A stretch of DNA of 34,257 bases. Origin: Candidatus Falkowbacteria bacterium HGW-Falkowbacteria-2. Its GTDB lineage: Bacteria > Patescibacteriota > Patescibacteriia > Patescibacteriales > UBA12465. Position numbers and translations under genes: made by a program. Location of the stretch: NCBI GenBank assembly GCA_002841655.1, contig PHAH01000001.1, forward strand, positions 1 to 34,257, given 5' to 3'. The first letter of the stretch is position 1, and each line of letters begins with the position of its first letter. The notes beneath the pieces are model-generated. The model made no database searches, was not told the origin of the DNA, and saw only the letters and a list, made by a program, of their open reading frames with translations. Positions 6,707 through 9,353 of this stretch are shown in pieces.

Positions 6707-7507
6707 TTATTTAATGAGCTCGCGCACTTCCTTAATCTTCTCCATGGCGCCGTTATATTCTTTATTATCAAACAAGGTTTTAGCTTCATCGAGAATCTCA
6801 TTGGCAGCCTTTACATCTTTAACTGGTTCAGTTTTGACTTCGAGAGTACCAGTAGCACTAGACGTGGCGGTGGTGGTTGGGGTAACAGTACCGTTGTTGA
6901 TTGAGAGCTGGAGACCAGCGCCATCTTTTTCAGTACCGGCAGAAATAATGATGCCATCTTCACTTACAGCTGAATCAGATACTTCAGGAGCAATGGCAGT
7001 TTTCTGGATGGCGGCGATACGGGCACGGACGGTATTAATTTCACGATCGAAGTTCTTATTGAGCTCGGCAACCTTCACTTCATTATGAGCTCCCTCTTCT
7101 GTTCTTGATAAAACTTCGGTAATCGCTTCAGCGTGATCAGCGGCAAACTTCACTTCTAATTTTGCCTTCTCTTCATTATTGAATACGGTTGAGAGTTTTG
7201 CCTTCTCCGAAATGATACGCGCGATGTATAGAGATTCATCCGGCTTCGCTCTATTAAAGGCGAGGTGACCAAAGGCGCTAGCGCCAGTGGCAAACAATAG
7301 TAAGGCACCTAAAACCAAGGCCGGTTGAGAGACGGTCATGGTGAAGCTACGAGCATCAATTAAGATGCGCTTCCAGACAGACAATTCCTTTACCCCAGAG
7401 TTAGAGATTTGGGATAGCAAAATCTCCCGGTTGCTTTTCAACCAGGCTGAATCAGGAGTTATCTTCTTGAGGTCCTTCAGTTGTTTGATGAAGTTATTCT
7501 CAGTCAT
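6707..7507 (-). CDS. single-pass membrane protein resembling DUF5667-type putative anti-sigma partners
   Basis: The ORF track starts at TTG 7513; the ATG is at 7507 (MTENNFIKQLKDLKKITPDSAWLKSNREILLSQI). It has one TM segment followed by a helical/coiled region and a T-rich linker. The family call is from memory of CPR annotations. Confidence 0.7.
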   Translation of the reverse strand: MTENNFIKQLKDLKKITPDSAWLKSNREILLSQISNSGVKELSVWKRILIDARSFTMTVSQPALVLGALLLFATGASAFGHLAFNRAKPDESLYIARIISEKAKLSTVFNNEEKAKLEVKFAADHAEAITEVLSRTEEGAHNEVKVAELNKNFDREINTVRARIAAIQKTAIAPEVSDSAVSEDGIIISAGTEKDGAGLQLSINNGTVTPTTTATSSATGTLEVKTEPVKDVKAANEILDEAKTLFDNKEYNGAMEKIKEVRELIK

Positions 7508-7638
7508 ACGCAATAGTATACGGATGAGTAGTCATTATGTTACAGTCCCCTGCTCCATTTCCGCCCGTCTTTATTGATGATTTCTCGCCCTACCTGACTT
7601 AAGTCTAGAGATATGTGGACTTAAGGTTGAAGATTGTA

Positions 7639-7736
7639 TTTGACCCGAGATTTCTCTAAATGATATAATAATAGTGTCGAGTCCGTTCCTGCTTCCTCAG
7701 TTAAAAAATAAGCACCCGAAAGGGTGCTTATTTAAT
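7639..7736 (+). ncRNA. mini-unit A: promoter + ~60-nt transcript + terminator (candidate sRNA)
   Basis: TTGACC 7639-7644 and TGaTATAAT 7661-7669. Transcript GTGTCGAGTCCGTTCCTGCTTCCTCAG..., then hairpin AAATAAGCACCC-GAAA-GGGTGCTTATTT at 7706-7733. Confidence 0.4.
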
Positions 7737-7805
7737 AGATATTTCGGGATTCTTATAGGCATGAACTTGACCTTTATATTATAGCACTCTAAGGGTAAGA
7801 GTCAA
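7703..7805 (-). ncRNA. mini-unit D: promoter + ~70-nt transcript + terminator (candidate sRNA antisense to the tRNA-like gene)
   Basis: Minus-strand TTGACT 7805-7800, 16-nt spacer, TGcTATAAT 7786-7778. Transcript GGTCAAGTTCATGCCTATAAGAATCCCGAAAT..., then the same hairpin 7733-7706 followed by T6. Confidence 0.45.
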
Positions 7806-7821
7806 GCAACCCAGAGCTGGG

Positions 7822-7889
7822 TGGACCCGCGGGGAATCGAACCCCGAGGCGATGAGTGTCAAGTTCATGCCTAAGACCACGTCGGGCCC
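7822..7889 (-). tRNA. non-canonical tRNA-like gene (68 nt), identity undetermined
   Basis: GGGCCCGACGTGGTCTTAGGCATGAACTTGACACTCATCGCCTCGGGGTTCGATTCCCCGCGGGTCCA. The 7-bp acceptor stem has a G3:U70 pair. The T arm is canonical (CGGGG-TTCGATT-CCCCG) and the discriminator is A. The core is about 5 nt too short to hold both a D arm and an anticodon arm. TGcTAGAAT (7908-7900) lies just upstream. Confidence 0.5.
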
Positions 7890-7953
7890 ACTAGAAATCA
7901 TTCTAGCAAATACGTGGTAACTGCAGGATAACAAGACGTTAACTATTTTATAA

Positions 7954-8051
7954 TTGACTCTGTAATCAAAAATGATGCAATTAAATTGTCGATTCCGTTT
8001 CTGAGCCCTGAATCCATTATCAAATAAGCACCCTTTCGGGTGCTTATTTTT
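7954..8051 (+). ncRNA. mini-unit B: promoter + ~65-nt transcript + terminator (candidate sRNA)
   Basis: TTGACT 7954-7959, 16-nt spacer, TGaTGCAAT 7973-7981. Transcript TTGTCGATTCCGTTTCTGAGCCCTGAATCC..., then hairpin 8022-8049 plus a T-run. Confidence 0.4.
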
Positions 8052-8074
8052 ATGCTGAAGTTCTATAAGACCAA

Positions 8075-8102
8075 TTGACAAAGCGTGGCTTAATGTTATG
8101 CT
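8075..8102 (+). promoter_or_regulatory. sigma70-type promoter for 8129..8413
   Basis: TTGACA 8075-8080, 16-nt spacer, TGtTATGCT 8094-8102. Confidence 0.55.
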
Positions 8103-8128
8103 TTTCATATCACCAACACACTTTAGTT

Positions 8129-8413
8129 ATGGAAAATAATACCAGCAAGCATCCGCAACATGTCGTTGGTTATGATGGTTCATTTAAGGACTTAGCTGAG
8201 GCTATTGGCACCATGAGCTACGATCAAGTTGCCGTCTTCCTTGGTGAGCTCGCCGCAAACATTCTCGAGCAAGCCATTTCCGACTTAAAAGTACGAAACA
8301 GACCTAAGCTGGCCCAACATTTATTCGCAGCGGCTGGAGAAATCAAAAAAGCTCAAAGTGAAATGGACTCCGCCTGGAAGGTCTGCAAACCGTATATGCC
8401 AAAACAATCTTGA
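8129..8413 (+). CDS. small hypothetical protein (94 aa)
   Basis: The ORF track starts at TTG 8075, but that TTG is the -35 box. The first ATG after the promoter is at 8129 (MENNTSKHPQHVVGYDG...). The protein looks helical and soluble, with no recognised motif. Confidence 0.6.
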   Translation: MENNTSKHPQHVVGYDGSFKDLAEAIGTMSYDQVAVFLGELAANILEQAISDLKVRNRPKLAQHLFAAAGEIKKAQSEMDSAWKVCKPYMPKQS

Positions 8414-8420
8414 TAATAAA

Positions 8421-8443
8421 GGAAGTATTTACTTCCTTTTTTT
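8421..8443 (+). terminator. intrinsic terminator of 8129..8413
   Basis: GGAAGT (8421-8426) / ACTTCC (8431-8436) followed by T7. Confidence 0.7.
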
Positions 8444-8444
8444 A

Positions 8445-8546
8445 TTGACTGCCCTCCCAATAGTGATATAATAATAGTGTTAAGTTCGTTCTTGCTCGAA
8501 TCCCGAATAGAATATCAAATAAGCACCCTTTCGGGTGCTTATTTTT
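8445..8546 (+). ncRNA. mini-unit C: promoter + ~70-nt transcript + terminator (candidate sRNA)
   Basis: TTGACT 8445-8450, 16-nt spacer, TGaTATAAT 8464-8472. Transcript GTGTTAAGTTCGTTCTTGCTCGAATCCCGAATAG..., then hairpin 8517-8544 plus a T-run. The hairpin probably also terminates the convergent sigma gene. Confidence 0.4.
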
Positions 8547-8582
8547 ATATACAAATTCGGTTTGTTTAATCTATTTCTTTTC

Positions 8583-9173
8583 CTATCTCTTTCCCTTCTC
8601 CATCTCACCTTCAACCATCTCTTTGAGGGCGGCTAGGGCGCGGTGAAGGATGACGCGGATGTTGCCTTTTGACTTACCAGTAACAGCCGCGATCTCTTCC
8701 AGGCTGAGGTCGTTTACAAAGCGCAAAATGATCACCTCACGGTATTCTTCTTTAAGAAGGGGCAACTGCTTGCGGATGAGCTCCATGTCGCTCTCTTGGT
8801 CCATATTGGCAGCCAGGTCCTGATTGTCATCAACTACATCAATCGGGTTATTCTCATCATCAAGCGAAACCTCTAGCTTATTCCCACTTTCGCGGTAGTA
8901 GTCGATGATGGAGGTGCGAGCAACCTTATATACTAAAGCGCGCAGAGTGCGGCTATCACTTAGACTGTTTGACTGGATATAGTTCCAGGCTTTAAGGAAG
9001 ATCATGGAAGTGAGATCACGAGCTTCTTCTTCACGCCCAACTTTAAAGTAGACGAAACGATAAACGTCTTCCACGTAGTCATCGTAGACTTTAATAAATG
9101 CCTCCTTATCTCCACTTTTCAGCTGTTGCAACAGTTGCTTGTCCTTGAATTTTTTTATTAGATTGGGGGCCAT
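8583..9173 (-). CDS. RNA polymerase sigma factor, sigma-70 family, ECF-like (regions 2 and 4)
   Basis: Region 2 is DVYRFVYFKVGREEEARDLTSMIFLKAW. Region 4 HTH is LSLEEIAAVTGKSKGNIRVILHRALAALK. The ORF track starts at TTG 9185; the ATG is at 9173. Confidence 0.85.
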   Translation of the reverse strand: MAPNLIKKFKDKQLLQQLKSGDKEAFIKVYDDYVEDVYRFVYFKVGREEEARDLTSMIFLKAWNYIQSNSLSDSRTLRALVYKVARTSIIDYYRESGNKLEVSLDDENNPIDVVDDNQDLAANMDQESDMELIRKQLPLLKEEYREVIILRFVNDLSLEEIAAVTGKSKGNIRVILHRALAALKEMVEGEMEKGKR

Positions 9174-9353
9174 GATTATAATCAAAAATAAAGGGAGTAT
9201 TTCCCTTTCGCTAAGATATCTATTTTAACTTCTATATTCTAGCACAAAAATGCAAAAAAGCAAGAAATTTTTACCCCTTTTTGTTGTGTATAATAAGACG
9301 CAAATAGTTATAAATTCGTCACTTTCAGGTGTGAGCGATCTTCTTCCTTGCTA

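Follow-up and report, generated by a model that had tools for sequence, protein, structure and literature searches.

What is the role of a 68-nt gene with the shape of a tRNA when an RNA exactly antisense to part of it appears to be transcribed from its own promoter alongside? The question is raised by a minus-strand gene and the adjacent small transcription unit D on contig PHAH01000001.1, positions 1-34,257, of Candidatus Falkowbacteria bacterium HGW-Falkowbacteria-2 (GCA_002841655.1); the whole of this 34,257-nt stretch is referred to here as the window. An earlier note on this DNA had read the pair as a tRNA-like RNA with a dedicated antisense partner, and comparison bears this out, with 19 tRNA-like genes in 18 loci of the Candidate Phyla Radiation (CPR), each with a matching partner. 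Judged from sequence, the tRNA-like gene and the antisense RNA are a real two-RNA module, which is apparently undescribed. The favoured mechanism, with a probability of about 0.55, is that the antisense RNA inactivates a mimic of tRNA or of transfer-messenger RNA (tmRNA). The parts of the module in the window are these, R1 being a covariance model built from the tRNA-like family:

7889-7822, minus strand: 68-nt tRNA-like ("mini") gene, GGGCCCGACGTGGTCTTAGGCATGAACTTGACACTCATCGCCTCGGGGTTCGATTCCCCGCGGGTCCA, then CC at 7821-7820; identified by sequence, fold, Rfam, R1 and covariation
7847-7872, minus strand: long hairpin of the tRNA-like RNA (its positions 18-43), of 8 pairs with a bulged C on the 3' strand and the 9-nt loop ACUUGACAC
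7858-7873, minus strand: target segment TAGGCATGAACTTGAC, made up of the last base of the D region, the hairpin 5' strand and most of the loop
7900-7908, minus strand: putative extended -10 of the tRNA-like gene, TGCTAGAAT, about 10 nt upstream of G1, as read from the sequence
7805-7778, minus strand: promoter of unit D, TTGACT-16-TATAAT, from a consensus scan (11 of 12 matches, with TG before the -10)
about 7773-7704, minus strand: unit D RNA of about 70 nt, the cognate antisense partner, its 5' end placed from the position of the -10
7706-7733: bidirectional terminator hairpin, common to unit D (minus strand) and a unit A (plus strand) described below

The tRNA-like RNA is laid out as GGGCCCG-ACGUGGUCUU-AGGCAUGA-ACUUGACAC-UCAUCGCCU-CGGGG-UUCGAUU-CCCCG-CGGGUCC-A, then CC. 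There are 7 pairs in the acceptor stem (GGGCCCG/CGGGTCC), including G3:U70, and the discriminator is an A (A73). The T arm, CGGGG-TTCGATT-CCCCG, is canonical, and the acceptor 5' strand is separated from the T stem by exactly 36 nt; all of these features had been described before and are confirmed in the sequence. No good -35 is present for this gene, for which the consensus scan made no call, and no further T-arm-like site in the window is convincing.

ARAGORN finds no tRNA or tmRNA across the window, and Rfam at its curated gathering thresholds has no match there, RF00005 included, so the element is not an ordinary tRNA misread in a hand fold. An ordinary tRNA or tmRNA was rejected on this basis, in agreement with the original description of the gene as non-canonical. 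In a permissive Rfam search the only notable match is to tmRNA (RF00023; 30 bits, E = 4.8e-10, where the gathering score is 47). This alignment covers both ends of the model, with 310 internal model positions deleted, so that the element resembles a tmRNA reduced to its tRNA-like domain, the middle being empty. It is this domain, matched below the gathering score, that is the nearest known relative, and not the minihelix-type alanine acceptor to which the gene had been likened. The score with R1 is 72.9 bits, while the models for mascRNA (27.6 bits, E = 0.0038) and for two-piece tmRNA, RF04321 (16.9 bits, E = 0.54), match weakly.

The window copy has a D stem of 3 bp, a hairpin of 8-9 bp and a loop of 9 nt, and the base after the putative anticodon is C, where a tRNA has purine 37. 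Compared with a standard tmRNA it falls below 47 bits and has no mRNA-like domain, only the 36-nt middle; compared with the permuted two-piece form it has the standard order, with both acceptor strands in one 68-nt RNA. By architecture, and by architecture only, it can be likened to the tmRNA form that has no coding region. The alanine identity set, G3:U70 with A73, is present. To judge from published phylum-level counts, the tRNA-like RNA is most likely additional to a normal tmRNA and not a replacement for it, as the table consulted gives a standard tmRNA in 78% of 6,765 Patescibacteria genomes, like other phyla known mainly from metagenome-assembled genomes (MAGs) (PMC11915505, Supplementary Table 2).

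The promoter of unit D starts 17 nt past the 3' end of the tRNA-like gene and is on the same strand, so the unit does lie 3' of the gene with a promoter of its own, as had been claimed. Its parts are, in order, the anchor GTCAAGTTCATGCCTA (7771-7756), a linker containing GAATCCCGA, the terminator hairpin and a U tract. The anchor is exactly complementary to the tRNA-like RNA at positions 17-32, and the inverted repeat 7756-7771 / 7858-7873 (TAGGCATGAACTTGAC / GTCAAGTTCATGCCTA) is 100% complementary over its 16 nt. This perfect match, the centre of the earlier note, has an ungapped pairing score of 27.5, compared with 13.3 +/- 1.9 in 300 shuffles (z 7.4), and an RNAduplex energy of -30.0 compared with -13.3 +/- 2.8 kcal/mol, with none of the 300 shuffles as good. 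When cofolded, the two RNAs are predicted to be 16.2 kcal/mol more stable than the monomers, with the hairpin opened. Within 7400-8800, unit D has a repeat in the tRNA-like gene only.

One genome per GTDB species was scanned with a loose pattern that describes a tRNA domain of tmRNA type whose middle is only 18-48 nt long. Among the matches listed, many of which are ordinary tmRNA 3' ends and tRNA(Ala) genes, there are 67-69-nt elements with perfect acceptor stems from Saccharibacteria, Peribacteria, Gracilibacteria, Doudnabacteria and other Patescibacteria, and a tighter pattern found 13 further loci in metagenomes. The same arrangement is present in at least 18 CPR loci, a lower bound in which the loci from the genome scan are those among the matches listed; with a second module in locus L023 this gives the 19 tRNA-like genes, each with its own partner. 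In 18 of 18 loci the partner, with a promoter-like -35/-10 and a terminator, is within about 150 nt, and it begins with 14-20 nt that complement the hairpin at its own locus, in the loop and the 5' strand. Across the 18 loci the cognate complementarity scores are 26-40, those of the second-best site in the flanks are 12.5-21.5, and z against shuffles is 5.9-12.3; the anchor starts anywhere from immediately to 9 nt past the -10 box (8 nt in the second L023 module). In an all-against-all matrix the cognate mean is 30.5 and the non-cognate mean 11.9, the own partner being the best match for 16 of the 18 tRNA-like RNAs and the exceptions being near-identical relatives. The paired sequences vary between lineages and match within the locus.

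The second module of L023, missed by the pattern and found by R1, has the hairpin GAGCGAUGAGUUAGCAC and a partner that starts GUGCUAACUCAUCGUUC, with 16 of 17 matches plus one G:U. The 3' parts of the two L023 partners are nearly identical, and it would appear that only the pairing segments have been swapped, and swapped together. Covariation across orthologous loci, which had been put forward as a check on the antisense idea, is therefore found in the pairing in trans, and it is found within the structure of the tRNA-like RNA as well.

For the latter, the 19 tRNA-like copies were aligned to R1 and the pairs counted. Paired cells are 86.8%, against 65.3% in shuffles and 45-67% with the partners slid, and both sides are changed in 104 cells, against 38 in shuffles. 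Four helices are supported in the family: the 7-bp acceptor stem, a miniature D stem, the long hairpin and the T arm. The D stem, of 3 bp, closes a 4-nt YGGU loop and has compensatory changes in all three pairs; the hairpin, of 8-9 bp and in most copies with one base bulged on the 3' strand, has them in 9 of 9. In the window the hairpin is (A)GGC-AUGA / UCAU-C-GCC(U), its loop ACUUGACAC containing a U-turn-type CUUG. Loops across the family are 7-9 nt long with the consensus N-U-Y-G-W-C-A, and the U-turn core UNR is found in 19 of 19, the stricter YUNR in 10-11. Pair 3-68, which is G3:U70, is GU in all 19 aligned members, on most of which it was imposed by the search pattern. The earlier note had the RNA form either a D arm or an anticodon-like arm. 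The anticodon-like arm exists, and is longer than was thought, while the either/or does not hold: covariation has both arms, in miniature, and the D arm that had been drawn, CGTG-GTCTTAGG-CATG, is not the conserved one.

An anticodon-like arm might suggest a decoding tRNA with a reduced D arm, reading CGU/UGU (Thr) or UGA (Ser) with alanine identity and so a mistranslator that the antisense RNA holds in check. The loop consensus does have U at the position of U33, the long hairpin and the 3-bp D stem on which it stacks are together of roughly the same length as the anticodon/D limb of a tRNA, and ARAGORN calls the copies in L014 and L250 tRNA-Thr(CGU). It is silent on the other 17, that of the window included, and the tRNA threshold of Rfam is reached only by L021 (31.7 bits), which is outside the 19 partner-bearing copies. 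The loop is of variable length, with C and not a purine 3' of the putative anticodon, and its conserved letters are equally explained by pairing with the partner's 5' end. A decoding role is very improbable.

The arrangement of the two genes differs between lineages. In the window, L023, L070, L014, L243-L247, L250 and L254 the partner follows the tRNA-like gene on the same strand, at 108-118 nt from the start of that gene in the loci that were measured. In the Peribacteria-type loci L029, L083, L249 and L255 it lies upstream and is divergent, and in the Gracilibacteria-type loci L045, L057 and L251 it lies downstream and is convergent, with a terminator in common. Whatever its position and strand, the partner RNA is antisense at every locus. 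At the DNA level some lineages have an inverted repeat and others a direct one, with the RNAs antisense in every case, which rules out the inverted repeats of a transposon, and the constancy of antisense polarity across these geometries supports selection on RNA-RNA pairing. In same-strand loci read-through transcripts with pairing in cis are possible, because no terminator is present between the tRNA-like gene and the partner.

The geometry also bears on the idea that the locus is non-functional, with the gene a decayed tRNA or tmRNA pseudogene, an integration remnant or part of a set of mobile-element repeats and the 16-nt match a by-product of duplication. The spacer is variable and has duplicated units, a decayed copy is present in L265-L268 and a deletion derivative in L262, and the z of the window fold is only -1.72. 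Terminal inverted repeats, however, cannot keep complementarity in trans through sequence change and in both DNA orientations, an integration remnant would hold only the 3' part of a tmRNA without the paired 5' acceptor strand, and there are compensatory changes across lineages in four of four helices. Mobile-element inverted repeats and the remnant of an integration site were rejected since RNA complementarity is kept in both orientations, and a phage origin of the CPR type was dropped since the tight CPR-type pattern has no match in the viral collection, which speaks against a non-functional locus too. That nothing here is functional is hardly credible.

The partner might have a coding role instead. 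In a split trans-translation RNA the mimic would be the tRNA-like domain and the partner the mRNA-like piece, the helix between them would stand for helix 2, and translation would resume on the partner. The best Rfam match is to tmRNA, and the copy in L045 (Gracilibacteria) attains the gathering score of RF00023 (47.8 vs 47). The intermolecular helix is about as long as helix 2 of tmRNA, and base-paired two-piece tmRNAs are known (PMC11915505). The short frames of some partners end in or near the terminator loop, PTKWVTNPPP* in L083 and PTTWVTDPLP* in L255 stopping at the same place, and UAGUAG is present in L023. Three-frame translations of the partners, on the other hand, have no common frame, resume codon or tag-like C-terminal ending, and in several partners every sensible frame runs into the terminator without a stop. 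Between the two partner paralogues of L023 there is a 1-nt indel in the common 3' part, a frameshift that destroys any common frame. The partner pairs through its 5' end, so that a coding part would exit beside the tRNA-like core, the opposite of tmRNA topology, and in close relatives the module is absent, partner-only or decayed. Most Patescibacteria, as counted in the published survey, have a standard tmRNA (PMC11915505).

No SmpB gene is found near the modules by tblastn of the flanks (the E. coli SmpB query being approximate), which counts against a split tmRNA, but as the SmpB gene is not always linked to ssrA its absence near the modules says little. Nor is there a protein family common across lineages in an all-against-all BLASTP of the open reading frames (ORFs) within 4 kb of the 18 modules. 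Taken together, a split tmRNA is improbable. In L083 and L255 (Peribacteria-type) an ORF begins tens of bases downstream of the tRNA-like gene; from its N-terminus, MLEKLRHLAREHADLQAKL…, we take it to resemble peptide chain release factor 1, which may be coincidence or a link to translation.

A second contact between the partner's linker and the tRNA-like RNA was considered and is not general, the cognate combination being the best in only 3 of 19. Pairing of the linker motif GAATCCC with the 5' strand of the T stem is conceivable, and in other partners there is a complement to part of the D region; such a contact may be lineage-specific, as in L243-L247.

In the window the module is between the genes for an extracytoplasmic function (ECF) sigma factor (8583-9185, minus strand) and a DUF5667 protein (6707-7513, minus strand). 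Syntenic loci were found through homologues of the sigma factor, which their sources label Patescibacteria or Falkowbacteria, and the spacer between the two genes was read in each (window 7513-8583, L257:10591-10991, L259:1005-1146, L260:10663-12150, L262:2594-3995, L265:4588-6686). Its contents, with the identity of the sigma factor, are:

L257 (sigma factor 95%): tRNA-like gene with the same acceptor stem, a near-identical T arm and a different interior (…GCAAGCGUGGUCUUAACAU…)
L262 (88%): tRNA-like gene deleted, with …GGGTCCACCC left and fused to a terminator; a D-like partner kept (anchor GGTCAAATCTATGCCTG)
L259 and L269 (82%): nothing in the spacer
L260 (81%): one partner-like unit, a homologue of a 94-aa ORF of the window and an NYN-domain gene; no tRNA-like gene
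L265-L268 (78%): tRNA-like remnant with unpaired acceptor strands; no partner; a DUF3800 gene

The partner in L257 starts GUUGUUAAGAUCACGCUUG and matches its own tRNA-like gene with one G:U. With these patchy states the module is accessory, with quick turnover. All 19 intact copies have a partner, the partner occurs alone in L260 and L262, and the partnerless copy of L265-L268, the only one in the clade, has a broken acceptor stem; this distribution fits a toxin with its antidote or tight negative control. Elsewhere in the clade the same spacer has NYN, DUF3800 or Xre-type helix-turn-helix genes, so that, as read from these sequences, the spacer between the genes for the sigma factor and DUF5667 (a putative anti-sigma factor) is a hot spot for variable cargo. 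Adjoining the DUF3800 gene is a DUF3800-IX RNA motif (RF02968, L265:4678-4741; 44.9 bits, above gathering), and in L269 a HicA-type toxin gene is present just beyond the DUF5667 homologue.

Unit D is one of four mini transcription units at 7640-8548, each made up of a promoter, about 35 variable nt and the hairpin AAATAAGCACCC-NNNN-GGGTGCTTATTT, which occurs 3 times in the window against 0.02 expected. The other three, and the ORF among them, are:

7640-7737, plus strand: unit A, with promoter TTGACC-18-TATAAT, anchor GTGTCGAGTCCGTTCCTGC and terminator; a partner paralogue
7954-8053, plus strand: unit B, with a degenerate -10 and no promoter call, anchor TTGTCGATTCCGTTTCTGAG and a terminator at 8022-8049
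8131-8413, plus strand: 94-aa ORF with no assigned function, between units B and C
8445-8548, plus strand: unit C, with promoter TTGACT-16-TATAAT, anchor GTGTTAAGTTCGTTCTTGC and a terminator at 8517-8544

Units A-C had been credited with weaker forms of the complementarity seen in D. This can be retained for unit C, where 14 contiguous pairs, with G:U allowed, are possible with the loop region of the tRNA-like RNA (z -2.8; 3 of 300 shuffles as good). It cannot be for A and B, which have no significant pairing with the tRNA-like RNA (duplex z -1.7 and -1.9). In A and C the anchor is closer to what would complement a hairpin of L265/L257 type, and the two units look like partners of an earlier or absent tRNA-like variant.

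With several partner paralogues in the window whose 5' ends have diverged (units A-D), it might be asked whether the partners are the working regulators, acting on mRNAs elsewhere, and the tRNA-like RNA a stable sponge or decoy that titrates them. The partner-only loci L260 and L262 would agree with this, as would partner promoters that are near consensus, and in enterobacteria tRNA-derived fragments do act as sponges of small RNAs. The unit A anchor, however, has no other target across the 34-kb window, and no second target for unit D is found within 7400-8800. Beyond a UGWCRA-like motif that pairs with the loop, anchors share no sequence between lineages and track their own tRNA-like RNA. 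The conserved, covarying element is the tRNA-like RNA, and a sponge needs no acceptor, D or T arm and no G3:U70. On balance a sponge is rather unlikely.

Inactivation of the mimic by its antisense RNA, the favoured mechanism, would proceed as follows. RNA 1 would be a stable, compact mimic of about 68 nt, whose acceptor stem, T arm and GG-containing D loop resemble the tRNA-like domain of tmRNA. Its G3:U70, its A73 and its likeness to tmRNA in the top half make it probable that the free mimic undergoes tRNA-type processing and is charged with alanine, by alanyl-tRNA synthetase (AlaRS). RNA 2, from the strong consensus promoter of unit D, would have at its 5' end a single-stranded tail, followed by a short linker and then the terminator hairpin. 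This tail may nucleate on the U-turn-type loop and then invade the hairpin, forming an intermolecular duplex of 16-20 bp that would unfold the tRNA-like shape and would be long enough to be a substrate for RNase III. As the duplex would unfold the mimic and may be cut by RNase III, RNA 2 would switch RNA 1 off. U-turn loops are nucleation sites, Sok is one of the antisense RNAs with a 5' tail, and RNase III cuts long duplexes; the place of the YUNR U-turn in antisense control was reportedly described by Franch et al. in 1999.

An unopposed mimic might interfere with translation or ribosome rescue, giving an RNA-only role like that of a toxin-antitoxin or defence system, which is the role favoured in view of the distribution. 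In the addiction variant a labile antidote would decay, for example on transcription shut-off in phage infection, and the freed mimic would enter ribosomes or titrate AlaRS, EF-Tu or SmpB, blocking translation or ribosome rescue. That the role is specifically one of toxin-antitoxin or defence is a tentative suggestion, less likely than not. It is somewhat unlikely that the module is an RNA-only addiction or defence system with an alanine-charged tRNA/tmRNA mimic as its toxin; if it is, no earlier toxin-antitoxin system would have been built from a tRNA mimic, and this one would be widespread in the CPR.

Several points weigh against inactivation of a mimic, and against a toxin in particular. 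The scans of the collections demanded GGG at 1-3 and TCCA at 70-73, so that the conservation of G3:U70 is largely by construction; only the copies of L257 and of the second L023 module entered independently, and both are kin of loci selected by the pattern. The promoters and RNA ends are consensus-based, from promoters and terminators, and the minimum free energy fold of the window copy is only modestly above shuffles. The three extra partner-like units match the tRNA-like RNA of the window poorly, which leaves them unexplained by a one-to-one antidote model, and the argument from a distribution in toxin-antitoxin style draws on a handful of relatives. Family-like minis in other bacteria and tmRNA-like minis on phage contigs have no detectable partner, among them the Poribacteria minis L055:2700-2767 and L063:1469-1537, which score 68-70 bits with R1 and sit inside a long stem of their flanks (AACCGCTGAACACCT … AGGTGTTCAGCGGTTTTT). 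The existence of such partnerless minis means that a mini is not necessarily toxic alone.

Other features of the region can be mentioned briefly. The 94-aa ORF has no Pfam match, and no homologue was found in a word-indexed search; local tblastn finds one, 59% identical, beside the partner-like unit in L260/L261 (L260:11697-11957). L257, with its tRNA-like gene and partner, lacks the ORF, which is possibly cargo of the same variable spot and is not needed for the module. The convergent sigma-factor gene (8583-9185, minus strand) ends just short of the terminator of unit C, and the hairpin AAGCACCC-NNNN-GGGTGCTT just past the end of that gene is duplicated together with the small units. A short tandem-like direct repeat, GACTTAAGTCTAGAGAT / GACTTAAGGTTGAAGAT, is present at 7596-7634, upstream of the DUF5667 gene, and a similar palindromic 'TTAAGTC…GACTTAAG' is kept at the same place in L257, L260 and L262; the repeat could be an operator or a sigma-dependent promoter element. 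The window, which is chromosomal DNA of CPR/Patescibacteria type, also codes for ABC and P-type transporters and a PhoH/PIN protein.

No Rfam family covers the module, and in the literature on tmRNA, tRNA-like RNAs and CPR/Patescibacteria no mimic of tRNA or tmRNA was found that has an antisense RNA dedicated to it, encoded in trans and co-evolving with it. The ingredients, tmRNAs without a coding region and antisense control, are known; it is for their combination that no precedent was found, and there is a real chance that the module is a new class of RNA-RNA module. Small RNAs that resemble tmRNA or tRNA are usually viewed as solitary housekeepers, while here a private antisense RNA co-evolves with one across deep CPR lineages, which points to regulated or mutually dependent use of a mimic of the translation machinery. 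If the mimic is charged and enters ribosomes, this would be a natural on/off switch for a tmRNA-like RNA without a coding region, and if the toxin or defence role is true, a new RNA-RNA class of such systems in bacteria that cannot yet be grown alone. Annotation either misses the tRNA-like genes, at the thresholds of ARAGORN and Rfam, or, in some lineages and on phage contigs, calls them tmRNA, and minis mislabelled in this way can distort surveys of ribosome rescue. The covariation in trans also supplies more than 10 natural orthogonal RNA-RNA pairs on one scaffold.

Of the known systems, the tRNA-like domain of tmRNA has most of the shape of the tRNA-like RNA: a 7-bp acceptor stem, G3:U70, A73, the canonical T arm, a D loop that contains GG and whose stem is short or missing, and a helix where a tRNA has its anticodon arm. 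The window copy differs in its 30 bits, below 47, in its covarying 3-bp D stem and in being accessory, not universal, and it is without the UUCGAC and GGAC motifs that phage-borne minis keep. To our knowledge no dedicated antisense RNA has been described for any tmRNA form. In the part of the published survey that was consulted, the 'Standard, no CDS' form of tmRNA, without a coding sequence (CDS), accounts for 9 sequences on record, 3 of them in Patescibacteria, listed there without further discussion, and a jakobid mitochondrial tmRNA without a coding region is referred to (Jacob et al. 2004, as cited in PMC11915505).

Phage or viral minis from IMG/VR (L127, L128, L140, L151, L158, L162, L172, L227, L235 and L240), of 59-70 nt, have nothing but the tRNA-like domain, in the order GGGGGTGAAAGGGTTTCGA, short palindromic hairpin, GGACG, T arm and CCACCTCCACCA. 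They pass the RF00023 gathering score with 53-65 bits (for example L240:5833-5899 and L158:1418-1490); those of L240 and L158 are beside phage tRNA genes or arrays, and no antisense partner is detectable. Such minis may be SmpB decoys or tag-free rescue RNAs. Outside the CPR there are also minis in a Gammaproteobacteria MAG (L111:209-276, 63.7 bits) and a Cyanobacteria MAG (L103:828-904, 58.9 bits), as scored with RF00023.

The two-piece permuted tmRNAs of alphaproteobacteria, betaproteobacteria and cyanobacteria likewise obtain a tRNA-like function from two base-paired RNAs. The module differs in that it is not permuted and in that its second RNA has its own promoter, may be on either strand, pairs with the hairpin only and has no tag frame. 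With mascRNA, the modules associated with YrlA/Y RNA and alanine minihelices it has in common an acceptor and T-arm module without a normal anticodon arm; mascRNA is eukaryotic and is released by cleavage of a long non-coding RNA, YrlA is a larger, permuted RNA associated with Rsr, and none of these has a cognate antisense RNA, unlike the module of the window.

The type VIII toxin-antitoxin systems, CreT/CreA and SdsR/RyeA, would be alike if the mimic is toxic, both parts being RNA and the proposed toxin acting on translation; CreT sequesters a tRNA. They differ in that CreA acts on a promoter by way of Cascade and that the SdsR/RyeA genes overlap in antisense, and we know of no RNA toxin that is a tRNA mimic. 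In the manner of control there is a likeness to hok/sok and the antisense RNAs of plasmid copy control. In common with these are a short, strongly transcribed RNA (here predicted) with a 5' tail and terminator hairpin, a U-turn (UNR/YUNR) target loop, a long perfect duplex, adjacent genes, a patchy spread and orphan antisense genes, and the free 5' tail, U-turn target loop and terminator are present in all the loci. In a type I system, or in copy control, the antisense RNA is encoded on the overlapping strand and its target is a toxin mRNA or a replication primer; in the module it is trans-encoded by neighbouring, non-overlapping DNA, and its target is a non-coding, tRNA-shaped RNA of 68 nt in the window, with no reading frame.

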